Below, one piece after another: positions 10,306 through 30,473 of a stretch of 46,041 nucleotides of DNA. Below the pieces are notes generated by a model that saw only the letters and a list, made by a program, of their open reading frames with translations, did not search any database and was not told the DNA's origin. The stretch's first letter is position 1. Every line of letters starts with the position of its first letter. A program made the translations under genes and the position numbers. Source of the DNA: a virus; UHGV virus genome UHGV-1457062, one strand, 5' to 3'.

Positions 10306-10962
10306 TTATTTCACTTCTCCGTCATACGTCGGAAGGGTGTCTTTAGTGGTGCTGGCTGTTCCTGCATTGGTTGGCACTTGGCTTTTTACCTGTCCGCCTG
10401 TGCTCTTAGGTGATGCGGTCTTTACAGCAATAGCGTTAGTAGTTGCATAACTCACTAATCTTATCTGTTCGAACTGCAAATCAAACTGTAAAGCTGATTC
10501 TGTTTTATATTCGTAGTCAATGCCTGTCAGAATCATATTATCAAACGTCTTATGCTCTGTGCTTACAATAATAGGCTGTCTGGCATTCATTATTTCATCA
10601 AGATAAGCAATAGCCTGTGAACACCTGTTACCGTTCACCCCTGCACTTGATAGCATATCACCACGTAATGCTAATGGTGTTTCTGTAATAATGCCTGAAA
10701 GCATAAGTTTATTATTCTTGATCCTGACATTATCAGATACATCATTACCATCCTGCACAGGATACGATGTAACATCGGCAGAACGTGAAACCTTAGTTGC
10801 CGGAACAGCGTCAAAAGTAATAGCTTTATAACTGGCTATCGTTGATGCATTCTCGTTATTCAGGTTGCTACATATAATGGCAAATCCGTTATCAGATTTA
10901 ACCTTGCTGTTAGATGTATTAATGTTAGATGTGCTGTTGATCTGACTTTCTTTGATAGCCAT
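10306..10962 (-). CDS. hypothetical protein (218 aa), Ser/Thr/Asn-rich
   Basis: Long ORF last in a co-directional block; no recognised motif. Confidence 0.55.
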   Translation of the reverse strand: MAIKESQINSTSNINTSNSKVKSDNGFAIICSNLNNENASTIASYKAITFDAVPATKVSRSADVTSYPVQDGNDVSDNVRIKNNKLMLSGIITETPLALRGDMLSSAGVNGNRCSQAIAYLDEIMNARQPIIVSTEHKTFDNMILTGIDYEYKTESALQFDLQFEQIRLVSYATTNAIAVKTASPKSTGGQVKSQVPTNAGTASTTKDTLPTYDGEVK

Positions 10963-15948: not shown

Positions 15949-16257
15949 TCATTTAGAGAAAATAGCACTTTTTGCTAAATCATCTACTAATTGCTGAATC
16001 TCTTCACTTGCAGCCTTTAACGTGCTGGCGGTGTCTGTGATGGTTTGAGTGCACATCTTGGCATCGTCCTCAATTAGCTCTAAATCGCTCACCAGAGAGA
16101 TAAAATCGTCAAGGCTTACATTCACCTTCATTAAGCTAATAACGCATTGAGAGAGCGTGTAATCGCATAAATCTGAATAGGCTTGATTTATTCTTGTTTG
16201 TAGTGAGATAGTCAGATCTAAAAGTTGTTCCATTGCATTGCTAATATCTTCTTCCAT
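15949..16257 (-). CDS. hypothetical acidic protein (102 aa), translationally coupled to rep
   Basis: Start ATG overlaps rep stop (TAATG); about 22% Asp+Glu. Confidence 0.55.
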   Translation of the reverse strand: MEEDISNAMEQLLDLTISLQTRINQAYSDLCDYTLSQCVISLMKVNVSLDDFISLVSDLELIEDDAKMCTQTITDTASTLKAASEEIQQLVDDLAKSAIFSK

Positions 16258-16817
16258 TATGCGGCTTCTCCTTGTAATGCATCATTAATCATATTCAATA
16301 CGATGTTAAAAGGTGTCTTGAGCGTCAGCACTTCATCACGATAACGCTCTAATGCTTCGTAGTCTTCTGTTTCTTCGTGCGGTGGTTTCTTCTTATCAAG
16401 GGAAAGAAGCCAAGTAAAAATTTCGGGCCGCTCAGGGAACTCTGATTCCTGTATTTCTTCTTCAACGATGATTTCTGAAACATTCAATATTTCATTAGAT
16501 TCGTTTTCTTTCTCAGAAGGATCAGGTAGTGATGATTCTCCTTTTGGAATATCAAGCACTCGATAAAGGTTAGAGCTTCCTGGTCGTGCATCTTTTATAA
16601 TTAATCCCATTTCGAGCAATTTCTTAACCCTTTCTTCTGCTGCTCTTGGTGTTATGCCAAAAACATCGCCTATCTTAGCGTAAGAGGGAAATGCACGATC
16701 AAACCCTCTCAAATAGCAGTAAAGGTTTTTAGCACTATCTGTAAATTTATGCCCGTTTACTTGGCTTATTTTTAGAATCCACATAGGAACTTTTACAAAT
16801 TGTTCTTCATTAATCAT
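16257..16817 (-). CDS. putative replication initiator (winged-helix Rep-like)
   Basis: ORF track 16257-16841 (GTG); ATG at 16817 with AAGGAGA RBS; HTH-like region ...KIGDVFGITPRAAEERVKKLLEMGLI...; iterons nearby. Confidence 0.5.
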   Translation of the reverse strand: MINEEQFVKVPMWILKISQVNGHKFTDSAKNLYCYLRGFDRAFPSYAKIGDVFGITPRAAEERVKKLLEMGLIIKDARPGSSNLYRVLDIPKGESSLPDPSEKENESNEILNVSEIIVEEEIQESEFPERPEIFTWLLSLDKKKPPHEETEDYEALERYRDEVLTLKTPFNIVLNMINDALQGEAA

Positions 16818-16870
16818 TAAAAATCTCCTTGATGTAATCACGCTCTACGGCGCTACTATGGTGATAAAAA

Positions 16871-19010: not shown

Positions 19011-19568
19011 ATGAAAATGGCTAATATTGGATACATTAGGGTATCGACTGTCCAACAAAACACAGACCGTCAATTAGCTGGAGTAACTCTTGATAAAGTC
19101 TTTGAAGATAAAGCGTCAGGCAAGAATACCCAGCGCCCACAGTTTGAGGCAATGATGAACTATGTGCGTGAAGGTGATGTTTTGCATGTTCACAGCATTG
19201 ATCGACTTTGCCGTAATACAGCCGACCTACTGGCAACGGTTGAGCAATTAACAGAGCGCGGCGTGTCTGTGCATTTCCATAAAGAAGACTTTAAGACAGG
19301 GAAGAACTCTCCCGCAGGGAATATGATGCTCACAGTGCTTGCAGCAGTGGCACAAATGGAACGTGAAATGATGCTTGAGCGGCAGCGTGAGGGGATCGCC
19401 GCAGCTAAGGCCGCTGGACGTATAGCAAAACGTGGTAATGGAAAAGCAATTGATCGAGCGGGAATTGTTGCCGCTCTCGCGAATGGTGGATCAATTCGGA
19501 GCGTAGCAAAAGATTTCAGTGTCAGCACACAGACGGTGCAACGTATCAAGAAAGAGCAGGAAGCGTAA
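19011..19568 (+). CDS. serine recombinase (resolvase/invertase family)
   Basis: N-terminal IGYIRVSTVQQNTDRQ catalytic motif, C-terminal HTH; about 185 aa; alternative start at 19017. Confidence 0.85.
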   Translation: MKMANIGYIRVSTVQQNTDRQLAGVTLDKVFEDKASGKNTQRPQFEAMMNYVREGDVLHVHSIDRLCRNTADLLATVEQLTERGVSVHFHKEDFKTGKNSPAGNMMLTVLAAVAQMEREMMLERQREGIAAAKAAGRIAKRGNGKAIDRAGIVAALANGGSIRSVAKDFSVSTQTVQRIKKEQEA

Positions 19569-19908
19569 TGCCTCCTGATATTTGAGAATTGTCGCTGCGT
19601 GGACCTGACGCCGCTGATCTTCGCGTTAAACATTGATCACGTCTGCGCCGATTTCAGAGAAAAAGACAGTAACTGAACTCACTATGAAGGCTAAACGTAT
19701 CTTTACACTTGATGAAAACGTTCAAAAAACAACCTAACCCCAAAATTCAACAAATTGCAACACATTGTTTTTAAAAGAAAATTAAATCTACATCAAATAT
19801 TGGTTGACGTAGATTGAGGTGAATAGTAGACTATTAGGGTAAATTACCACCCTTGTAACATCATTTAATGCATGTTCTAATCTTCCTATCGTAAAACCGG
19901 AGGAAGTT

Positions 19909-20067
19909 ATGCATTTACTTTCAAAACATCTTCACACTATTCACTTTCTCGTTATTGATGTATTCGTTGTGGCTATTAGTTACCGCATTTGCATCGCTTC
20001 CAGTGAAGAGATGGACGCTGTTGCAATTATTGCTCAAGCAATGGCGATGTTAACTAAACGACTTTAA
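19909..20067 (+). CDS. hypothetical 52-aa hydrophobic peptide
   Basis: Manually found ORF with GGAGGAAG RBS and upstream TTGACG/TAGACT promoter-like hexamers; single predicted TM helix. Confidence 0.25.
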   Translation: MHLLSKHLHTIHFLVIDVFVVAISYRICIASSEEMDAVAIIAQAMAMLTKRL

Positions 20068-20888
20068 TAATTTCACTATCAGGTGCATAAACACATCTTT
20101 GATCGCTGGATGTGTTATGCGCCTACTGGTGATTCAATCCTTAAGCCATTTCAACTCACTAAGGAGTTTTCTTTCTTCGTTCTCTCGCTGTTTACGCTCT
20201 AGCCAGGCTTTTCCTTCTGGCGTAGACAGGAACTTACGAGCGTGAATCTTGCGGTTATTACGTTTGATAGCTGCAATGTTTTTCATCGTGTGCCTCTGTA
20301 TTCATATGAAAATTAACAAGTTACATACTACACAGGAAGGCTACGCATAAAACACAATACAAGTAAAGATACATTTTCAAGACAATAGGAGCCATAAAGC
20401 GCCTTTGATGGTTATACCAAAAAATAAGCGCCGTAGGCGTATCCACTAAAAAGGGCTTTTTCACAAAAGCTATGAAGTCTTAGCAGTTCTTCTCTTATCA
20501 GGCACCCGTTGTACTCCGGTGGACGAAACCGTGCTAGAGCTTGATTCTTTCCCGATCAAGTTAGGTTTTGAAGAGGTGGGCTTTAATCCACTATGCACTT
20601 AAAACTCTTCCCATCATTTAGCCTGTTTATCCTCTGCAACGTCTCACGACGTGTAGCATCATTGGACACCGCGCCAGGTGTGGAACATCTTGCTAAGAGT
20701 TTTGGTAGAAGGTTTAGAGACGGTGGCACGTCTTCCAGCTTCAAAGGAACTTGTTACGAGGTTGAGCCTGTGAACTACTCGCCCATACGTGTTACACTAC
20801 CAAAGCCCATAACAACGTATAGGCGTTTGTAAGTGATAACAGAAGATACAATTTCTTAGAGAAGTTAAGCTAAGTTATTGATTTTCTT

Positions 20889-20936
20889 AATGGTGCCGAT
20901 AATAGGAGTCGAACCTACGACCTTCGCATTACGAAT
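20889..20936 (-). repeat. 46-48-nt copy of thrW tRNA-Thr(CGU) 3' portion (anticodon loop to CCA); P22-type att core, not a complete tRNA
   Basis: Reverse complement reads ATTCGTAATGCGAAGGTCGTAGGTTCGACTCCTATTATCGGCACCA; 5' half of the tRNA absent (sequence diverges at 20937). Confidence 0.7.
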
Positions 20937-21146
20937 CTGTAGCACCAATCATAACTATCTGTTTTAGCAAGCATTAACCGCATTCACTAACCTATAGTTG
21001 ATGGCACAAACAGAAAGTTGATGCATGATGTTGCCATGTGTATGTCACAAATACGGCACAACAATCTTCAAACATGTAGCCACCAGAATAGCACAACGCC
21101 TTGTGTACCATAGTTTTTCCACATCAACTACCGCAAGTATCGATAG

Positions 21147-21332
21147 ATGGAGGCTTGGATGTTAAACTTCATGACTTTGATTACTTGGTTGCATCACGAA
21201 ACTATTGAAGTGCAACTGGCACATGCCAACGGCGGATCTGTGCGCGGTATTTACAACCATGCTCAGTATCTCGATAAGCGCAGGGAGATGATGCAGTGGT
21301 GGGCGGACTGGATTGATGAAAAGGTGGAGTAA
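21147..21332 (+). pseudogene. C-terminal fragment of a P4-type integrase
   Basis: ...VQLAHANGGSVRGIYNHAQYLDKRREMMQWWADWIDEKVE matches the conserved P4-type C-terminus; no upstream catalytic domain. Confidence 0.6.
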
Positions 21333-21464
21333 TCCACCTTAACTATCGAATGGCATAAAGCCTTGCAATCCAGCGCAAAGCTTATATGCCACAGTTTTTG
21401 TTGCCACGCCATTCATATAGGTAAGTGACACAGAATGTGCCTAGATATACTGTGATATATAAAT

Positions 21465-23453
21465 TTACTTTCCAAGTAACTCCTCTATTTTCTCAATACG
21501 CATAGCTAACTCTTTTTGTTTCTCCAACAAACGAGAGTAGTTACGTCGTTGTAATGCAGCCTCGAGAGACAATGCCTCCTCATAACGAATTCCGTATCTT
21601 TCACCAGCTGGTGTATCAAGAACCTTTTTAAATTTTGCAGGGGCAGGTTCAGTATATTCTTCTGTATTTCCACCGCTCGTTTCTCTTGTTTTTTTTACCA
21701 CCTCCCCTATATTTGTCTGCACATCAACGTAAACGTCATCCCATGAGTCATAACATAGCAAGCCAAGCTTAAATCCATCTATTCCATGTGATGAAAAAAC
21801 TTTTTCAACACGCTGCGCAATCAGTCCAAAGTGCCATCTCGCACCATCTTCTCCTTTTATCGCTATTGCGTCATCAAATTTAAACCATGTCCCCCAGTCT
21901 ACTTCTGACCACGCGTCAAGAATATATTCTGGTATTTTTTCTTTGATGGGTTTATGGCGAGAGTCAGATGTATTAATTGACCCGGTACCAAAATACGCTG
22001 TTCTTCCTCTTTTGGAAGCTGTTCCATAATCATAGGTGTTGTCAAGAGATGGTCTAATGCCAGACCCCATGACTATTTCTGTTTTTGAGTTAAGTTGAAT
22101 GATTGAAGAATTAAATCCAATAGTCCCATCACCAGAATCTTCAGAACCACCAGAACAGAAAATCCTTCCATCGTTATCAACATTATTTCCGCTTGAGTGA
22201 AAGTCAATATATGAAACACCGGAATCTGTTGTACTACCAAGTTCAATAGATGAGCCAACAGATGCGATATTCAATTTACTATTTTGTAAAGTAACGTCAC
22301 CTGACATCAATATCATTGATGAGCATTTTGGTATCTCGAATCCTGATGTTATGGATGGCACATCTGTAAATGCAACAAGTATTTTACTATCTCCTGCTAG
22401 GGCGTGCCCCCCATTCATGTTGCCTATGCGAATAGCGTTTTTCCAGCGAACGGTTGAAGTAGAAAGGTTTGATAAGGCAATACCAGTATCTACAGCAGTA
22501 CCTCGAACATCACCACCACCGACAATCTGAATACCTGATCGATACCATACAGATGAACCTACTAACGCGGAAACATTAAACTCACATCCTGTAACGTTAT
22601 AAACTCCAACCGCAGCAGAATCCAGGCGTCCATACATATTTCCGCCAAAATATGCTCCTTTGAATGTACCAGGTGATGATGATATCGTTCCACCATCACC
22701 ATTTTGTGAAACCGCAAGACCAACAACACCAACATAATTTCTATCAGGATTTTCTAAGTTTGTGGCTGCTTCGTGAGTTAAAACAAACTCTCCGGCGTGT
22801 CTGCCGCCTTTTGCTTCTTGATATCCGAAATTATGGTGAACTAAAAACCCGTCAACTTTTGTTCCTGCCGATTGGTCATCAACAGCATTAATTCTGTCAT
22901 CATTAATCATGATATAGTTTATTTTAGCTGTGCTTGCATTAGGAACAGAACCAACAATTGAATCATTAATAATGATACCAATACCGTATGTAAGACCATC
23001 ATTTAAATACTCTGATGTCCTGCCCTGCATTATTGAAAACTTATCATTACCTCTAGATATAACTCCTGCGCCAACTAATCCGGCACCACCATTAATAGAT
23101 AGTTCGGTTCTTAACTGATCAGGATCATACTTCAGAACATTAGGAAAATAGAACTGCTGCGCCCCATAAGCATCATAAACAGCCATAGAATGGCCTTGCA
23201 CAGTTACGAACTTGGCAATCTGTCCGTTATATACCGGATAACCAGCAGCGTTAATGATGATTGGTTGCGAAACAGGAACGTGAGAGCCGTCTTCGTTCTC
23301 CACATAAACATGAATCTGGTTTTCAGGATTTACCGGGTCAGTGTCAATTTTACCGATATAAATTTTGCCATTGGCAACCGCTTTAAAAGAACGCGCCATA
23401 GTGAAGAGTTGCGAAGGCATGCTTACCACAACATTGGCTGTAATGTCTGTCAT
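21465..23453 (-). CDS. tailspike protein: P22 gp9-type head-binding N-terminus, divergent receptor-binding body, C-terminal S74-type intramolecular chaperone domain
   Basis: [43 protein letters not shown]... matches P22 gp9 N-terminus; C-terminus has [12 protein letters not shown] and [14 protein letters not shown] motifs. Confidence 0.85.
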
Positions 23454-23585
23454 TTAATTTGCTCCAGATACAAGGAATCGCCGCAGCATGGCTACGGTGA
23501 GTATTTGTTACATACCGAAACGGTACGATTGTTGATTTGTACAGTAGGTTTTACGATGCCATTCCACCCATTTGGTGAGGCATTG

Positions 23586-23843
23586 ATGATGTACAGCAAA
23601 TACGATGAGGCGCAGTTCCACTTGAGGCTTACGCACGAGTTGCACGCTAAGATTAAGCAGCGTGCAAAAATGAATAACAGGTCTATCAATTCCGAAATTG
23701 TGGCTACGATGGAAGAATCACTCTCCAAACCATCACCTGTAAGCGGGTATCGTGATGAAGAAGAGAGGCTGGCCTCATTAATCTCGGAACGAGTAAAAGA
23801 AGTTGCGGCTGATATCCTTAGAAAAGAAAAAACCCGCGATTAA
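23586..23843 (+). CDS. mnt: Mnt-like ribbon-helix-helix repressor (immI)
   Basis: NNRSINSEIVATMEESLSKPSPVSGYRDEEERLA matches P22 Mnt; GGTGAGG RBS before ATG at 23586. Confidence 0.75.
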   Translation: MMYSKYDEAQFHLRLTHELHAKIKQRAKMNNRSINSEIVATMEESLSKPSPVSGYRDEEERLASLISERVKEVAADILRKEKTRD

Positions 23844-23857
23844 GCGGGTTTAGTTGG

Positions 23858-24079
23858 TTAGTTATCAAAAAGTCCGTACGTTTCTTCTTCTTCAGGTGTA
23901 AGGGGAAGAATCTCTACTCTATCTATAGATACCTTTTCAATGTACCCATGAGGTCTACTTAAAATTAAAGCTCTCTCATGCCACAGAACTCCAAGAATGT
24001 GATACCTTCCAGCATCGCCTTTTACCCTGGCTCGTCCTTTGATTCTTGGCGGCATAATGCCATATTTTTTCTTTGCCAT
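23858..24079 (-). CDS. hypothetical protein (73 aa)
   Basis: ORF immediately downstream of the antirepressor genes. Confidence 0.4.
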   Translation of the reverse strand: MAKKKYGIMPPRIKGRARVKGDAGRYHILGVLWHERALILSRPHGYIEKVSIDRVEILPLTPEEEETYGLFDN

Positions 24080-24804
24080 TATGCAACATTACTCCCATGA
24101 ATCAGGTGTTGTAGTGCTTTAACACCTTCCGCATTGTAGCGGAATGCTTCCACCTGTTTGCTGGAATGCGCAGATTTATCCAGGAAGAACTTACCGTACT
24201 GCTCAGTTTTGAGGTTGTTTGCGTTAGCAATGCGACCAATCTTGTTGGCCGTTACTCCAAGCTGCTCTGCAACCTCCCCTGCTGAGTAGTAATGCTCTTC
24301 TATTGCTGGAAGAGGTATTGCATTAAAACCAACGATCGGGTTGATTATGCTTGCTGCCGCAGTCTGCTTTGCTTCCGGCGCAAGATTTGGCATCAAATCG
24401 AACAGATTGGTAACAGCTTCAACCGTCATTTTCAGTGTTCGCGCTTGACGATACTCAACAAGTCCACTCGCTGATTTACCGCTTTTAATGTGTGCTTCCT
24501 GCATACTTTCAAGTTTGTCTACAAGTGTTCGGCGAACTGCTTTAGATTCTCGAGCAGCAACACGAAGCGCCTGCTTGATAGTCATGGAGATAACATCAAT
24601 GTCAGCCCCGTTTTTCCGACCTACACTTTTTGTGTAGGTCTCGCCCTCCAATTCATCCTCAATTTTCTCGATGAATTTGTTGTTACGTACTGATGGCTCT
24701 CCACATAACTTGCGAGCTTCATTAACCATCATCAGAAGACTTTGGCTGTCAATGGTTTTATCCGTGACAACGGATCCGATGTTTGCTACATTCTTCAAAG
24801 TCAT
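24079..24804 (-). CDS. antirepressor-like protein (Rha/ORF6N-like N-terminus, KilA-C-like C-terminus)
   Basis: ORF 24079-24855 with internal ATG at 24804 and AGGAA RBS; ...SLLMMVNEARKLCGEPSVRNNKFIEKIE... pattern. Confidence 0.55.
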   Translation of the reverse strand: MTLKNVANIGSVVTDKTIDSQSLLMMVNEARKLCGEPSVRNNKFIEKIEDELEGETYTKSVGRKNGADIDVISMTIKQALRVAARESKAVRRTLVDKLESMQEAHIKSGKSASGLVEYRQARTLKMTVEAVTNLFDLMPNLAPEAKQTAAASIINPIVGFNAIPLPAIEEHYYSAGEVAEQLGVTANKIGRIANANNLKTEQYGKFFLDKSAHSSKQVEAFRYNAEGVKALQHLIHGSNVA

Positions 24805-24892
24805 TAGGCATTCCTTATGTGGTAGTAAGGGTGTGACATAGGCCGCCAGCAGCACACTGGCGGTTTTCTTTTTGCGTCGTCCGGCGCACCAA

Positions 24893-25519
24893 TCAATGAA
24901 TCCATTCCTCGCCGCGCAGTTTTGCCAGCATTGGCTGAGCGTTCTTTACGACAAAATTGTTGGTATCAAGATTCTTCATTTCACGAAGAAGTGATTTCTT
25001 GGTTTCTTCTGACATGTAGCGAGTCTCATATGCAATATCGTAAATCCTTCCTGAAAGCTCAGAACCAATTTGCTTCATTCCTGGGTAGATGTGTTTGCAC
25101 ATTTGTTGGCTCTTCTCCATCCACAATTGTAAGTAGCAGAGATTAACCAGTTCTTCGTCAGTAAACTGTTTTGCAATCGGTGAGCATTCTGCCTGCCGAT
25201 CCAAAATATCCAGCACCCAGCGGCGGAACTCTTTTGCTACAGGAGTGCGAGCAAACATCGCGATTAGGTGGGCACCGCGTAGTGAGAAAACTCGCACTTT
25301 TTTGCGATAATTTCCTGAGGTACTCACTTCGAGTACCTGAGTCATTCCGGCGCTAAACTCATCGCTATACTTGTTATAAATCATTGTTACTGCACGACTA
25401 TTTGCGTATTTAAGTGCAGATGCAATATTAGATGATGTGAACCAAACACCATGCATATCACGGGTGGGGACCAACTCAACTCCGTGGAAGTTGTAATCTG
25501 ATTTTGCTACAATATTCAT
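24893..25519 (-). CDS. ant: antirepressor Ant-like (Bro-N domain)
   Basis: FHGVELVPTRDMHGVWFTSSNIASAL... Bro-N signature; ATG at 25519 with AAGGAA RBS; downstream of arc as in P22. Confidence 0.7.
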   Translation of the reverse strand: MNIVAKSDYNFHGVELVPTRDMHGVWFTSSNIASALKYANSRAVTMIYNKYSDEFSAGMTQVLEVSTSGNYRKKVRVFSLRGAHLIAMFARTPVAKEFRRWVLDILDRQAECSPIAKQFTDEELVNLCYLQLWMEKSQQMCKHIYPGMKQIGSELSGRIYDIAYETRYMSEETKKSLLREMKNLDTNNFVVKNAQPMLAKLRGEEWIH

Positions 25520-25592
25520 GTTAGTTTCCTTGCATACGGTTACTGACATAGAGGCCCGGTTTGTGTTCGCGCACTGCCGGGCTTCACTATTT

Positions 25593-25766
25593 TTATTGGA
25601 TGACAACATCGCCCTTTGCCTCAAGTTTCATCAATAACTCCATTCGATAAGCTATCTCTGCCTGAATTGACCTATGGCATCTTTTTGCTGATTCGCGGAT
25701 ATGTGAATCAACCTTTTCTGTAAAACGAACCTGACGCGGCTTGATGGAAGATATCTTTTCAGTCAT
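25593..25766 (-). CDS. arc: Arc-like ribbon-helix-helix repressor (57 aa)
   Basis: Manually translated MTEKISSIKPRQVRFTEKVDSHIRESAKRCHRSIQAEIAYRME...; position upstream of ant matches P22 arc; below ORF-track cut-off. Confidence 0.5.
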   Translation of the reverse strand: MTEKISSIKPRQVRFTEKVDSHIRESAKRCHRSIQAEIAYRMELLMKLEAKGDVVIQ

Positions 25767-25865
25767 TATGCACTCCTGTTTTTAAAAAACTCATAATCTC
25801 ACTTTTTGTAGTTTGATTATTCACTCACACTCAGTATGAGTCAATGAATTTTTTATGGTGAACTA

Positions 25866-26507
25866 ATGAATTTTGACGATCAATTCCCATCAAGAGTATC
25901 TCTGGCAAGACAGTCCAGGGGTATGACGCAGGCGCAGTTGTCAAAATTAGCTGGTGTTGTTCAACGTCAAATAGCTGCATACGAGGGTGGTGAAGCTAAA
26001 CCACGGCTTCGGGTATTGCAGGCATTAGCCAACGCATTAGGTACTACGGCTGAGTGGTTAGCTCTAGGTGAAGGTCAGGGTCCGGGAACAAAAAACGTCA
26101 TGCCTGACGTTCTGGTAAAGCAAATACCAATCCTCAAACTAGATGAAGTTATGCATTACCTAAACACAGGTGAACACTCATCGTCTAGATTTCATCCGGC
26201 AATATACAATGTTGGTGACTCTGCATTTGCATTGACTATTGAAGGTGAAGCTATGACTACAAGTTCAGGTATTAGCTTTCCCAGAGGATCGGTTGTCACG
26301 TTCAGCCCTCTAGTAAAAGCTAAAAGCAAAGATTATGTAATAGCATCATTGGATAAAGAGCAAATATTGAGCTTCAAACAGGTTTACATTGGTGAAATAG
26401 AGACAAACCTAGTATCCCTAAACCCAATGTATCCTAATATTCTTGTTAGAAATGAAGATGTTAGTATTTTGGCAACCGCAGTTTACCTTGAAATCCCGTT
26501 GCTTTGA
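25866..26507 (+). CDS. lambda CI-like repressor (XRE HTH + S24 LexA-like domain) with Ser->Ala at the nucleophile position and no Ala-Gly cleavage site
   Basis: C-terminal VGDSAFALTIEGEAMTT...SFKQV...LNPMYPNILV parallels lambda CI ASDSAFWLEVEGNSMTA...FTFKKL...LNPQYPMIP; GEAM in place of GNSM. Confidence 0.8.
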   Translation: MNFDDQFPSRVSLARQSRGMTQAQLSKLAGVVQRQIAAYEGGEAKPRLRVLQALANALGTTAEWLALGEGQGPGTKNVMPDVLVKQIPILKLDEVMHYLNTGEHSSSRFHPAIYNVGDSAFALTIEGEAMTTSSGISFPRGSVVTFSPLVKAKSKDYVIASLDKEQILSFKQVYIGEIETNLVSLNPMYPNILVRNEDVSILATAVYLEIPLL

Positions 26508-26571
26508 TATCCTTTGGGAAGCGACACATTATCATCTGATATCCTGCGCAAAACTAAGGAGTGGCTACTCA

Positions 26572-27210
26572 ATGAAAAAAATAGATATATATAGCGATAC
26601 ATCAACCTATGTCATAGGATCATTAGGTTTTTTAATTTTTTTTGTTTGGCAGTACCAGTCACTATCTCCAGGGTGGAGATTTTTGGGGATGTCTTTGATA
26701 TCACTTGGTGCAGGAATAGCAACGCAGGTGTTGATGTATCTCTTTAATGGATGGCTCTCAAAAAGAGTTGAGAAAAAAAGAGCTGCTTCAATATGTAGAA
26801 GCCTAGCCATTCCAGAAGACTCTACAGATCAGGATGATATTGCAAAATGTTGGCGGTATATGATTGCAAGATACTCAAATGAGTTACTGGCAAACAGACT
26901 GTCCGACTTAATCGGGATCGTAGTTACCTCTGTTGGAACAATCATCAGTATAGGGATATCAATTTGGTATGTCGGGATGATTGTCTATTTTGTTTGGAAT
27001 AGAGACTTCAATGAACCTTTCCTTCTTTTTATACCTTTATTTTTCAGGATATTAGCATTCATATGTGAGTTATTGCTCTCTTTTTTCTGCAATGTTTTGT
27101 TCAACAGATACCCTGGTGAAGCAAGAAAGTTTAATAAAAACTATGATGAGTTAAGGAGAATAGATCCTTTTCTATCAAGTAAAGAGTTCCGCGATTCCAT
27201 TCGCAATTAA
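26572..27210 (+). CDS. AT-rich multi-pass membrane protein at the sieA locus (candidate superinfection-exclusion moron)
   Basis: ORF 26443-27210; ATG at 26572 with AAGGAG RBS; at least four hydrophobic helices; low GC. Confidence 0.6.
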   Translation: MKKIDIYSDTSTYVIGSLGFLIFFVWQYQSLSPGWRFLGMSLISLGAGIATQVLMYLFNGWLSKRVEKKRAASICRSLAIPEDSTDQDDIAKCWRYMIARYSNELLANRLSDLIGIVVTSVGTIISIGISIWYVGMIVYFVWNRDFNEPFLLFIPLFFRILAFICELLLSFFCNVLFNRYPGEARKFNKNYDELRRIDPFLSSKEFRDSIRN

Positions 27211-27231: not shown

Positions 27232-29061
27232 TTAGCGATCAGTTGCATCATTGGCAAGTATTGGTCTGATGGCATTTGCGGCGTTATTCAGCGCTCTTTC
27301 ATAGGCTGGCGTTCCAGCTTTAGTGTTTGCCAGACGTAAGAGCGCATTCCTAGCCATAGGGCTTTCATAAACCCTCGACATAAGGCCAATCCCTGTTTCC
27401 CCAGCCAATAGCGCGCCTCCGGTTTTTAGGTTACCAATAACCCTTACCAAAGGCGCGAGTGTCATGCCAGTCTTCGTCACAACATTAGCCTCAGATGCTC
27501 TTTTGGTAGCATCGAGAATAGATAACATCCCCTCTATCTCTTTTCCGTTCTTCCCACCAAATACAGTTTTAAACACCTGACCATTTGCTTGTTTTTGCAG
27601 CTTGCCAAGCTCGGTCATCATTTTCTGAGGGCTGTCACCTACCTTGTCAGCTATTTTGCTGATATATGCCGCCCTTAGCATGTCTTTACCTTTTTGATCG
27701 AGTTTCCCGTACAATCGAGCTATATCTGACCCATATTGTCCATACACAATGGTATTTACAGCCTCGGGAGTTAAATCTCCTTTGTTTAGAACGTTTTTAA
27801 GGCGCGTTTGAGTTGCATGTGTTGCCATTTTTGCATAATCAGCTTTTCCCGCTCTCCATGCTGAAGCATCTTTTGGGCTAAGTCCTTTCGCTATAGATTT
27901 ACTAAGGCTATTGGTTAGCGAGTTGTAGACCCTGTCGACCATTGTTTGCGACATTGATGGCAGAACTGTACGATCGCCTTTTACGTCAATGCGGAACTGA
28001 GTTCTCAGCTTATCAAGTAACTCAAAGGCATCATCTCCATTTGTTATCTCCTGAATGGCATTCTTATAATCATTAAGCGCAGAAATGGTCTGGGTGTCAG
28101 AAACACCTTTAAGTTTCCCAAGTTCGTTTACTGCTCCGTCGATAGCTCTTATGGCGCCACTTGTATCAACTGGCTTTCCAACCATTCTTCCTGACAGGTT
28201 GTTTAGTTTTGACTTGGCTAACGATTTTTCCCTTGCAACGCCTGACTTTAGACTATCAACGACTACAGATGGATCGTAGTCGCCGTATTTTTCGGTGAAG
28301 CGATTAACAAGCTTGGTTCTAGCATCCTGCTGTGCGGCTCTCATTGGTCCAGTCCCAGCTATGACTCCTTCTGAGTAACCCTGCAGTTGATTGCCAAGTT
28401 TTGTTTTTGGAGGAACTACATCCGATGTCATAACTGGTACATCTGCCGCAGCGGCACGCTTGAGCAATTGCTGATCTGCTGGTGATATTTCGCCACGAAC
28501 AGCAGTAATTCCACGCCCTATTCCCTTTGCTGCTGCGGAAAGAACCCCCTGAGCGGCAAGGTTAACTCCGGCATTTTTAGTTGCATTTTGTGCGAAATCG
28601 CCTTTCTGATTTGCGGCCTCTGCCAGTGATCCAATAGCCATGCTTCCTGCCGTTCCAACTCCTGGAACTAAATACCCGCCAATTGTTTCACCAGCTTGCG
28701 CGTAAGGGTCTGTCGGTCGATCGACAGGGCGATAAACATCATCCAAAACCTTGGGGCCACCAAGCCCCTGGCTGATTGCATTAATCAGACTTGCGCCACC
28801 CTGCAATACGTCAAATGGTATGTTTACCAGACCACGACCAGCCTGTTCTGCAATTTGCCCTGCACTTTGACCACCAGTGAGCCAATCGCCAGCTTGTTGC
28901 ATCAATGATGGTTCTTCACGTGCTGGTTCATTGCTATCCTGGCTGACAGTTTGTTGCTGAACAGACTGTCCAGCAAAATACTCATCAATGGCAGATCCAA
29001 TATCTTCCGTGCTCGTACCATCAGGGAAGGTAAATGTCTTACCGTTTGCAGTTACTTTCAT
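27232..29061 (-). CDS. DNA injection (ejection) protein, P22 gp16 homologue
   Basis: 610 aa versus 609 aa in P22; conserved position after gene 20. Confidence 0.75.
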   Translation of the reverse strand: MKVTANGKTFTFPDGTSTEDIGSAIDEYFAGQSVQQQTVSQDSNEPAREEPSLMQQAGDWLTGGQSAGQIAEQAGRGLVNIPFDVLQGGASLINAISQGLGGPKVLDDVYRPVDRPTDPYAQAGETIGGYLVPGVGTAGSMAIGSLAEAANQKGDFAQNATKNAGVNLAAQGVLSAAAKGIGRGITAVRGEISPADQQLLKRAAAADVPVMTSDVVPPKTKLGNQLQGYSEGVIAGTGPMRAAQQDARTKLVNRFTEKYGDYDPSVVVDSLKSGVAREKSLAKSKLNNLSGRMVGKPVDTSGAIRAIDGAVNELGKLKGVSDTQTISALNDYKNAIQEITNGDDAFELLDKLRTQFRIDVKGDRTVLPSMSQTMVDRVYNSLTNSLSKSIAKGLSPKDASAWRAGKADYAKMATHATQTRLKNVLNKGDLTPEAVNTIVYGQYGSDIARLYGKLDQKGKDMLRAAYISKIADKVGDSPQKMMTELGKLQKQANGQVFKTVFGGKNGKEIEGMLSILDATKRASEANVVTKTGMTLAPLVRVIGNLKTGGALLAGETGIGLMSRVYESPMARNALLRLANTKAGTPAYERALNNAANAIRPILANDATDR

Positions 29062-30473
29062 CATTCCACCGTAAATTGAATGCCTGATTTTGAGGTATAT
29101 GATCCAACCTGATTCGGTGTTTCTCCTGAAGGTGTCGAATCTTGCGCTGGTGCTGCGTCAGTATTCATTGACATATACCGCTTAACGGCACTCCCCAATG
29201 ATTCACCTTTTTTAACATCCAACCCCAATATCTGACCGCCATTACGCGATTGTCCAGGGTTGCCATTCGCGCTCATCCACTCGGCTTTAAATTCATTAAA
29301 CTGCGCGTTTCGTCGCTCAAGGTTTGCCATTGCATCAAGCCATCTTGCGACCGTCTCAGGGTTATCCATGTCAGTTGGCGCACCCTGTCGAACGATCTCA
29401 ACGTCTTTATCCGTTGCTGGGCCGGGAGGTAGGAATTTAAGAACCTGACTGTTAACAAGGGCATTTTGGCGGATGCGCAAATCACGCAATGTCGTATCGC
29501 TTCCGGTAAGTTTTGCGAACATGTTCTGTGCGTTACCGAACAAACCTGTCGTTGGTTTTTCTGCTCTGAACTGTTGAGCAAGCGCACTCATAGAATTGGC
29601 TGAGTTTGATGATGCTGTGGCATTGTTTACAGCCGTCTCGATGCCTTTTTCCATGTTTACTGACAGCTTAGGTGCTTCACTAATCAACTGCTGAGCCTTT
29701 TCCTGCGCTTGCTGCATCTTAAACCCGAACTCTTGCTGATCCAGAGCCAAGCGTTGTGCTGCGATATTGTGCCCAGTCATTGCTGACTGATAGGAAAGGT
29801 TTTGCCCTCTCGCCTGAAGTGCTTCACCAGCCTGATTGCTGCGGATTGTCTCTGCCAGCCTGCCTCGGTCAATTTCACGACCAGCCATCTTGTCCTGAAC
29901 ATTGAAGTAATCAATCGGACCAAGAGCAACCATCCCAAGGTGATCAACAAACTCACCAAATCCTGAAGGATTCTGCTGATACATCTGAGCAACGTTATTA
30001 GGGTCAACACCGACGCGAGTCAGTTCCTTGGCGTTGTTTTGCAGCCATGATTGCATTGCTTCTGGAGACGAGGCCGCAAGGCGTGCGCCAGCCGCTAAGG
30101 TTCCTATAGAATTGCGCTGGTCTTCGTCTGCCCACTTCATACCAGACTGAATCTTCTCTAATTGACCAGGATATTTTGTCATCAGATCTCGAACCTGCTG
30201 TCGATCACCTGATTGAATAGCAGAAGCATAATCCTTTCTGAATGCTGCCTCTTGCTTCTGCTGATCATATTGCTGCAATCCTTGCATTGTGCTTGTTATT
30301 CCCTGCAGAGCCTGCAGACCGATATTGTTGCGACCAAGCCTGGCATCCTCATTATTCTGACGAATGTAAGCCAGTGTCTCATTTACATCACTCGCCTTTG
30401 GCGCATTCTCATTTTGCGCACCAATTCCAGCCAGAAAACCACCGGAGTTGATGCTCTGTTGCCAAGTTGCCAC
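29061..30473 (-). CDS. DNA injection protein, P22 gp20 homologue
   Basis: 470 aa (P22 gp20 471 aa); synteny. Confidence 0.75.
   Translation of the reverse strand: MATWQQSINSGGFLAGIGAQNENAPKASDVNETLAYIRQNNEDARLGRNNIGLQALQGITSTMQGLQQYDQQKQEAAFRKDYASAIQSGDRQQVRDLMTKYPGQLEKIQSGMKWADEDQRNSIGTLAAGARLAASSPEAMQSWLQNNAKELTRVGVDPNNVAQMYQQNPSGFGEFVDHLGMVALGPIDYFNVQDKMAGREIDRGRLAETIRSNQAGEALQARGQNLSYQSAMTGHNIAAQRLALDQQEFGFKMQQAQEKAQQLISEAPKLSVNMEKGIETAVNNATASSNSANSMSALAQQFRAEKPTTGLFGNAQNMFAKLTGSDTTLRDLRIRQNALVNSQVLKFLPPGPATDKDVEIVRQGAPTDMDNPETVARWLDAMANLERRNAQFNEFKAEWMSANGNPGQSRNGGQILGLDVKKGESLGSAVKRYMSMNTDAAPAQDSTPSGETPNQVGSYTSKSGIQFTVE

Follow-up and report, generated by a model that had tools for sequence, protein, structure and literature searches.

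A P22-like immI region with a CI-like divergent repressor, two antirepressor-type genes and putative antisense RNAs, probably assembled from two regulatory units

The immI region of phage P22 is a textbook example of layered gene control, with two ribbon-helix-helix repressors and one antisense RNA. Here we describe the corresponding region of the virus genome UHGV-1457062, in a stretch of 46,041 nucleotides (hereafter, the window). The window carries the late-gene half, on the minus strand, of a P22-like (Lederbergvirus) Escherichia coli prophage. The region under study lies between the homologues of gene 16 (DNA injection/ejection) and gene 9 (tailspike), which is the P22 immI slot. Our analysis suggests that this region probably consists of two regulatory units set side by side by recombination. 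Unit A (25866-26507 together with 23858-25766) comprises a CI-like repressor gene, the ribbon-helix-helix gene RHH57, the antirepressor-type genes ant1 and ant2, and orf73, whereas Unit B (23454-23843) is the mnt unit. An earlier note on this DNA had described an immI region with P22-like mnt and arc, two antirepressor-type genes and a 73-amino-acid (aa) open reading frame (ORF) beside a CI-like gene; all of these genes exist at or near the places it gave, and each is a member of a conserved family.

The interval between genes 16 and 9 has been named the "ant moron" and is highly variable, with ten types among sixteen genomes (Villafane et al. 2008, PMC2629481). One of these types, "HS-1", was drawn with putative antirepressor genes and no apparent arc, and hence with control unlike that of P22 (Villafane et al., PMC2629481, Fig. 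3). The DNA described here is already public: phage JEP4 (MT740315) has 98% identity over 23441-26561, the prophage of E. coli HS has 97.7% identity, and the HS-1 type was drawn in 2008. The same DNA occurs at a coverage of at least 80% in 12 of 5426 complete E. coli genomes. JEP4 differs from the window in having no SieA-like gene and an ant1 allele that is 77% identical. In the literature, including the 2008 HS-1 paper and the JEP4 record, we found no account that recognizes mnt as an orphan or mentions the CI-like partner, the RHH57 family or the antisense elements. The earlier note called the cluster unusually dense. The genes are indeed packed between genes 16 and 9, but the density is relative, since the slot is known to be variable, the same cassette occurs in JEP4 and E. 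coli HS, and antirepressor-type genes in tandem occur in SPN3UB and Serratia prophages.

Comparison with P22 immI revealed extensive likeness. The window region occupies the same slot and has an Mnt homologue, with Pmnt and operator at homologous positions, a ribbon-helix-helix gene at the head of the operon and a SieA homologue. Ant1 shares the C-terminal domain of P22 Ant, and a sar-type RNA with a homologous promoter is predicted at the junction of the ribbon-helix-helix gene and ant. In contrast to P22, mnt in the window stands apart from the ant operon and opposite gene 9, and a CI/C2-like protein with helix-turn-helix (HTH) and S24 domains occupies the position of the divergent repressor. 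Furthermore, BLASTP does not align RHH57 with P22 Arc, the N-terminal domain of Ant1 is Bro-N where P22 Ant has P22_AR_N, and the window region contains two additional genes, orf73 and a second antirepressor-type gene that is paired with a putative antisense element.

Two other groups of systems are close to this locus. Salmonella phage SPN3UB and Serratia prophages share with it an Arc-type gene, sar, a Bro-N/P22_AR_C Ant, a sar2-type element, a second antirepressor-type gene and a small ORF, and the Serratia siphovirus-type prophages have the same ant1-ant2 tandem at 53% and 79% identity. However, these cassettes lie in the tail-gene clusters of siphoviruses, whereas that of the window lies in a podovirus immI slot. 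Their divergent regulator is an Arc/Mnt family protein of 108-148 aa, not a CI-like protein, and in SPN3UB the second slot holds an ORF6N protein. According to the summary in PMC7067206, the Gifsy prophages have LexA-controlled antirepressors. These and coliphage 186 Tum resemble the window locus, as we read it, in that the repressor that silences an antirepressor belongs to the HTH/S24 family and is distinct from the main immunity repressor; in contrast, the repressor in the window is encoded by the phage next to its presumed target operon, carries Ala where the nucleophile would be and lacks Ala-Gly, and the control region contains no LexA box.

The CI/C2-like repressor gene (25866-26507, plus strand) encodes 213 aa. 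The protein has an N-terminal HTH domain (HTH_3, E 9.3e-13) and a C-terminal S24 domain (Peptidase_S24, E 1.3e-12), which is the architecture of LexA, CI and C2, and it aligns end to end with P22 C2 at 25% identity. Its active-site motif is IEGEAM, against QGDSM in P22 C2, with Ala at the nucleophile Ser and the general-base Lys kept (FKQ). The aligned cleavage position reads LDEVMH, against VSAGQW in P22 C2, and Ala-Gly is present in no orthologue. The Ser/Lys dyad is kept in most orthologues; Ala is found in the window allele and in two others. From the loss of Ser and the lack of Ala-Gly, we infer that the window allele is incapable of self-cleavage, in agreement with the earlier note, which had called the adjacent protein non-cleavable. 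The predicted recognition region of the HTH (RQIAAYEGGEAKPR) is invariant among the orthologues. Phage JEP4 has a separate, complete immC with a 216-aa C2; thus, the CI-like gene is a second repressor gene and not the main one.

The CI-like and RHH57 genes share a control region of 99 bp (25767-25865). It contains the best promoter match of the region, the promoter-like site of the antirepressor operon (25816-25844, minus strand; TTGACT-17-AATAAT, 10/12), whose -35 element sits within the motif TGAGTCAATG, which is conserved in the orthologous cassettes. The candidate operator elements are ACTCA at 25789-25793, ACTCAcACTCAgtaTGAGT at 25823-25841 and an imperfect inverted repeat at 25793-25803/25810-25820, none of them assigned to a strand, and the candidate operator sequences of the control region include ACTCA/TGAGT and TACCGnnnCGGTA. 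ACTCA/TGAGT is the most recurrent 5-mer in eight orthologous control regions, where it occurs at fixed distances from the CI-like start codon. We hold these operator assignments with less confidence than the overall picture of two units. SOS control through LexA was considered and rejected: it is unlikely for the window cassette because 25767-25865 contains no LexA box, and near-matches in the window are about as frequent as expected (20 found, 16.7 expected).

Relatives of the CI-like protein were sought in viral and genome contigs, and all window proteins were mapped onto the loci found. The viral-contig scan was the informative one, while the genome-contig scan, which used close-relative patterns, gave 3 loci only. 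The CI-like gene and an RHH57-ant1 operon diverge on 39 viral contigs, 25 with identical loci and 14 with diverged ones (41-46% identity), and in 2 Yersinia genomes. The divergent pairing of the CI-like gene with a ribbon-helix-helix gene is found always, an ant1-type gene comes next, and an ant2-type gene usually follows. The pairing is independent of mnt, orf73 and the SieA-like gene, all three of which come and go; for example, cassettes L022, L025 and L039 have the CI-like gene, RHH57 and ant1 without mnt.

The first gene of the operon, RHH57 (25593-25766, minus strand), encodes a 57-aa ribbon-helix-helix protein in the position of Arc, and a 57-aa homologue heads the operon in every orthologous cassette. 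Its profile matches are weak: Pfam Arc gives E 0.011, which is below the cut-off, hhalign against the Arc/Mnt profile gives E 1.8e-4 with a probability of 48%, and the top PDB profile matches are Arc and CopG at E 0.03-0.4. The "P22-like arc" of the earlier note holds as a ribbon-helix-helix gene in the Arc position; its product is at most a remote relative of P22 Arc. The second gene, ant1 (24893-25519, minus strand), encodes 208 aa, and its true start is 25519, preceded by the ribosome-binding site (RBS) AAGGAA. Ant1 combines an N-terminal Bro-N domain (E 2.2e-10) with a C-terminal P22_AR_C domain (E 4.6e-14), so the Bro-N Ant-like gene had been named correctly. Since P22 Ant consists of P22_AR_N and P22_AR_C, Ant1 is not an Ant of the P22 type in its whole length; the similarity, 30% identity, is confined to the C-terminal domain.

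The third gene, ant2 (24079-24804, minus strand), encodes 241 aa and matches phrog_1726, "anti-repressor", at E 6.7e-101. Its true start is Met18 of a 258-aa ORF, in agreement with the JEP4 annotation, the phiKp_30 homologue and the PHROG profile. The 1969 homologues of Ant2 are mostly 241-247 aa long. Ant2 has no Pfam match at E<=0.1 and no NCBIfam match, and it shows no similarity to P22 Ant; a sequence search of the PDB gave nothing below E 0.4. The earlier note had placed this gene among the Rha/KilA-C types: it is a distinct antirepressor-type gene, but the domains that define those types, Phage_pRha (PF09669) and ANT/KilAC (PF03374), were not detected. An exhaustive search revealed that Ant2 consists of two independently shuffling halves, approximately 1-110 and 105-241. 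In 58 relatives that have one of the halves, the other part is Bro-N (13), ORF6N (9), Rha (6), AntA (5), KilA-N (5), ANT/KilAC (3) or P22_AR_N (2). The AlphaFold (AF2) model of Ant2 (pLDDT 80) matches antirepressor/KilAC proteins of BFVD at E 5e-9 to 1e-3 (Foldseek), while the only fold match in the PDB is a weak one of the last ~64 residues to winged HTH domains of the MerR/RacA/BldC/Xis type (E 0.07-0.6). These domain relationships place Ant2 in the antirepressor/Bro/KilA network, as a separate family without a Pfam model. Antirepressor activity of Ant2, for which we argue by analogy, is less certain than the overall picture.

Two other genomes carry informative forms of ant2. In E. coli HS (3081-4228), an IS3-family element lies within ant2, in agreement with the IS3 triangle of the 2008 figure (PMC2629481). 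The Klebsiella phage phiKp_30 (a 33.7-kb Lederbergvirus; 3956-5063) has mnt, ant2 and the sar2 element at ~90% identity, without ant1, RHH57 and the CI-like gene, and the homology breaks ~20 nt inside the 3' end of ant1.

The last gene of the operon, orf73 (23858-24079, minus strand), encodes 73 aa and matches phrog_4977 at E 5.5e-54, so that the 73-aa ORF of the earlier note was borne out. Its ATG overlaps the stop codon of ant2 (TAATG). Among 5.8 billion proteins, its relatives make up only 8 clusters, which share at least 80% identity, and it has no Pfam or NCBIfam match. It is present or absent between otherwise identical cassettes. Downstream, at 23830-23851 (minus strand), an intrinsic-terminator-like hairpin of 8 pairs with the T-run TTTCTTTTCT overlaps the 3' end of mnt and would end the antirepressor operon.

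Both antirepressor-type genes appear to be accompanied by an antisense RNA gene. The first is a putative, diverged sar-like gene at 25505-25592 (plus strand), with an extended -10 element TGcTACAAT at 25505-25513 and an RNA at ~25520-25592 that would form two hairpins followed by a T-run and would cover the RBS of ant1. The junction of RHH57 and ant1 aligns with P22 Psar/sar in the TGcTAnAnT element, the complement of the ant start codon, the first hairpin (GUUAGU...ACUGAC), the terminator hairpin and the T-run. The predicted 77-nt RNA has the same two-hairpin fold as P22 sar (z = -5.6), and across ten diverged junctions its stems contain 5 pairs with compensatory changes. A SymR antitoxin RNA match at 25517-25588 (plus strand), at 21.8 bits against a gathering score of 61, is probably a chance resemblance in the two-hairpin antisense shape.

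The second putative antisense RNA gene, sar2 (24764-24876, plus strand), lies over the start codon and RBS of ant2. Its promoter (24764-24792; GTGACA-17-TACATT with a TG extended -10) is just inside ant2, and the RNA would extend over ~24798-24876. The terminator hairpin at 24840-24866, followed by TTTTCTTTTT, is the strongest intrinsic terminator of the region and lies on the antisense strand; its stem contains 2 pairs with compensatory changes. A covariance model of sar2 (R1) gave hits in 27 of 35 sources, with exactly one copy at each locus, and every copy was antisense and lay immediately 3' of ant1; P22, Sf101 and VSe13 contained none. No Rfam family matches sar2. In SPN3UB, the sar2 element precedes a different second-slot gene, that of the ORF6N protein.

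Unit B is formed by the mnt homologue (23586-23843, plus strand; 85 aa) and its upstream spacer. The protein matches Pfam Arc at E 4e-15 and shares 47% identity with P22 Mnt (E 5e-24), and the JEP4 annotation is "regulatory protein mnt"; the earlier note had rightly called it a P22-type mnt. In an alignment with P22, the spacer between mnt and gene 9 corresponds position by position to Pmnt/Pant/Oarc/Omnt and continues into the leader of gene 9. The candidate mnt promoter TTGTTG-17-TACGAT (23529-23557, plus strand) aligns on P22 Pmnt (TTGAGA-17-TATCAT); it is weak by consensus and was not called by the promoter scan. The Omnt-like palindrome ATACCGAAACGGTAC (23512-23526, no strand assigned), a candidate Mnt operator, aligns on the 17-bp mnt operator of P22 and has a single perfect match in the whole window. 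The β-strand residues of Mnt are Q/H/R, against H/N/R in P22, which fits an altered operator sequence. In the same spacer, ATGGCA...TACAAA aligns on P22 Pant. The 55 bp directly upstream of gene 9 (23454-23508, minus strand), the boundary sequence, are near-identical to the P22 gene 9 leader at 16150-16204, and the annotation of CUS-3 carries an equivalent "boundary sequence". A LexA-box-like sequence, TTGTTGATTTGTACAG (one mismatch), is found over the candidate mnt promoter at 23529-23544 (plus strand); such matches in the window are at chance level.

In P22, mnt is divergent from arc-ant and Omnt lies over Pant. In the window, mnt instead diverges from gene 9, and it and the ant operon are transcribed towards each other. 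By its alignment, the mnt unit corresponds to P22 immI minus arc and ant. The same arrangement of mnt and gene 9 without ant is found in Sf101 and VSe13, and phage L has kept only an mnt-like remnant (PMC8022706). P22 itself has two copies of the boundary sequence "aaaattcaccgtagcca", one at 16036-16075 after the ant terminator and one at 16150-16204 before gene 9. The window joins the Omnt-like site directly to the second P22-type copy, which suggests that the boundary repeats may be recombination points for module exchange.

The gene content, the homologies, the substitution in the active site, the conserved synteny and the conserved RNA hairpins are shown by the sequences, and for the circuit as a whole we infer each binding and regulatory step. 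The sigma-70 promoter (25844-25816, minus strand) would drive RHH57-ant1-ant2-orf73, with transcription ending at the terminator at 23851-23830. In the lysogen, the CI-like protein would keep the operon off by binding the 99-bp region, which is the role of Mnt in P22, and RHH57 may act as an early autoregulator that limits the antirepressor burst after infection, which is the role of Arc. The sar-like RNA and sar2, which are predicted to start just inside the gene and end upstream of it, covering the RBS, would block translation of ant1 and ant2. Ant1, through the C-terminal domain of P22 Ant, and by extension Ant2, would bind and inactivate immC-type repressors of their own or of co-resident prophages, and two different Ant proteins may give a wider target range. 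Mnt probably controls its own gene and adjusts the transcription that runs into the tailspike gene, and would not act on the antirepressors; such modulation of read-through into gene 9 has already been suggested for the ant moron of P22 (PMC2629481).

Several observations weigh against this picture. The prophage immC repressor lies beyond the right edge of the window (46041), and the targets of Ant1 and Ant2 are thus outside the view. No clear 17-bp CI-type palindrome common to all orthologous control regions was found, where only the ACTCA/TGAGT half-sites recur. The phrog_1726 name "anti-repressor" is an annotation, not a tested function. Rfam RF00262 (sar; gathering score 43 bits), which gives P22 sar 97.8 bits and the SPN3UB element in this position, a member, 48 bits, gave no match to the sar-like element even at E<=10 in a search on 131 bases; the window element is a diverged sar-like element, not a member of that family. 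The sar2 promoter lies within the coding sequence of ant2, and its conservation may partly reflect protein constraint. Finally, the hexamers of the relic Pant before gene 9 are poor, and Mnt may regulate itself alone or be a remnant.

The earlier note had implicitly treated Mnt as the immI partner of the ant operon. In such a P22-style arrangement, Mnt and Arc would jointly control one promoter for both antirepressor genes, and the CI-like gene would be an unrelated neighbour. The close relationship of the window protein to P22 Mnt, the ribbon-helix-helix gene at the head of the operon and the location between genes 16 and 9 are as this arrangement would have them. We consider it unlikely, however, because mnt is found at the distal end of the operon, with which it converges, and diverges from gene 9, with its own homologues of Pmnt and Omnt, while a window search for the ATACCGAAACGGTAC palindrome found no copy near the ant promoter in 25767-25865. 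Moreover, L022, L025 and L039 have Unit A genes without mnt, in Sf101 and VSe13 mnt is present although a complete ant operon is not, and the CI-like gene is the conserved divergent partner. It is also improbable that the CI-like and SieA-like genes form an exclusion or defence moron expressed from the prophage, in which the repressor regulates only itself and RHH57 and the antisense RNAs alone control the ant operon. HTH-S24 proteins frequently autoregulate, the two genes are adjacent and co-oriented, as sieA is in P22, and the PADLOC defence models gave matches to RmrA and CapH. These matches are generic HTH matches, however, and PADLOC found no specific defence family. The CI-like gene stands beside RHH57-ant in JEP4, in many loci without a SieA-like gene and in the Yersinia and diverged cassettes, and the conserved motif of the control region overlaps the -35 element of the ant-operon promoter, all of which weighs against such a moron.

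It is conceivable, but in our view doubtful, that Ant2 is a DNA-binding regulator or host-takeover protein that shares Bro/KilA/Rha domains, so that the region would have a single true antirepressor. This would account for the lack of a Pfam or NCBIfam match and of similarity to P22 Ant, for the C-terminal winged HTH as the sole resemblance in the PDB, and for the unrelated ORF6N protein in the second slot of SPN3UB. It fits less well with the PHROG and BFVD matches, with the fusion of the Ant2 halves to AntA, P22_AR_N, ANT, Bro-N and Rha in relatives, and with the position of ant2 in one operon with ant1 under the same sar-type antisense arrangement. The earlier note had named another possibility that would have undone its second gene, namely that a frameshift has split a single ant gene, of which ant2 is simply the C-terminal half. 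This was rejected and is hardly credible: apart from adjacency and shared orientation, nothing points to it; ant1 contains Bro-N, matches positions 5-72 of the P22_AR_C model (73 positions in all) and has its own stop, an 88-bp spacer with a conserved hairpin separates the two genes, and ant2 has its own RBS and ATG, full-length 241-aa homologues and no relationship to P22 Ant.

Our preferred reading, in which two units were joined by recombination, illustrates how the P22 immI circuit may be rebuilt by module exchange. The maintenance repressor would have been exchanged for the CI-like protein, the N-terminal domain of the antirepressor swapped, and a second antirepressor-type gene and a second antisense RNA added, while the original Mnt would stay behind, guarding the tailspike leader. 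If this is true, it explains the remark of 2008 that control in HS-1 is unlike that in P22, adds a new family of small antisense RNAs and makes JEP4 a tractable E. coli system for asking why prophages hold several antirepressors. No general principle is altered by the finding. More tentatively, and with clearly lower confidence, the CI-like, RHH57, Ant1 and Ant2 genes may form a self-contained mobile cassette that travels between podovirus immI regions and siphovirus tail clusters, in which a non-cleaving S24 repressor replaces Mnt, each Ant is gated by its own cis-antisense RNA, and the two Ants differ in mechanism and target different repressor families. On this mobile-cassette reading, sar2 would be an undescribed RNA family, orthologues in which the Ser-Lys dyad is intact might make the cassette responsive to a damage signal, and the prophage would gain an adjustable weapon with which to cross-induce or to bypass immunity in polylysogens.

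The remaining features concern the flanks of the region. Between the CI-like gene and gene 16, a gene for a SieA-like membrane protein of 212 aa (26572-27210, plus strand) matches phrog_7745 at E 2.4e-20 and P22 SieA at 28% identity over 148 aa (E 4e-24). Homology and its position beside gene 16 both identify it as SieA-like, and its exclusion activity is putative; the gene is absent from JEP4 and variable among the cassettes. The homologue of gene 16, encoding the DNA-ejection protein (27232-29064, minus strand), is the left border of the variable region. On the other side, the tailspike gene, homologous to gene 9 (21465-23453, minus strand), encodes a protein with the Pfam domain Head_binding (E 9.9e-67), as in the P22 head-binding domain, and a C-terminal Peptidase_S74 domain (E 1.8e-10) of the endosialidase-chaperone type. 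The late genes are ordered from Q, RusA and YbcO at ~44-45.5 kb through the head genes to gene 16 and the tailspike. Downstream of the lysis genes, at 41440-42051 (minus strand), lies a gene for a Rha protein (Phage_pRha and ORF11CD3), placed like P22 rha; it is a third antirepressor-type gene of the same prophage.

Homology with prophage-free E. coli chromosomes stops at ~20936, within the tRNA-Thr gene thrW beside proA. This is the prophage end and attachment junction, and the prophage is integrated in thrW. Because only a partial copy of the thrW tRNA is present (20890-20936), ARAGORN and Rfam report no tRNA in the window. Just beyond the prophage end, a Hin/Gin-type serine recombinase gene (Resolvase and HTH, E 1.1e-38) is found at 19011-19568 (plus strand), beside ~1.8 kb (19633-21465) without an ORF of more than 80 aa; the area at 19011-21465 may be what is left of another element, or an invertible segment that has decayed. 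The island adjacent to thrW encodes a SPATE-type serine-protease autotransporter of 1376 aa (3084-7214, plus strand), a tyrosine integrase (8867-10231, plus strand), a Dit-like phage tail protein (10306-10962, minus strand) and a protein named "LexA family transcriptional regulator" in RefSeq (16257-16841, minus strand), and it looks like a mosaic of a virulence island and prophage remnants. At the beginning of the window, the Rfam RNA family IS009 is matched at 154-354 (minus strand) with 197 bits, above its gathering score.

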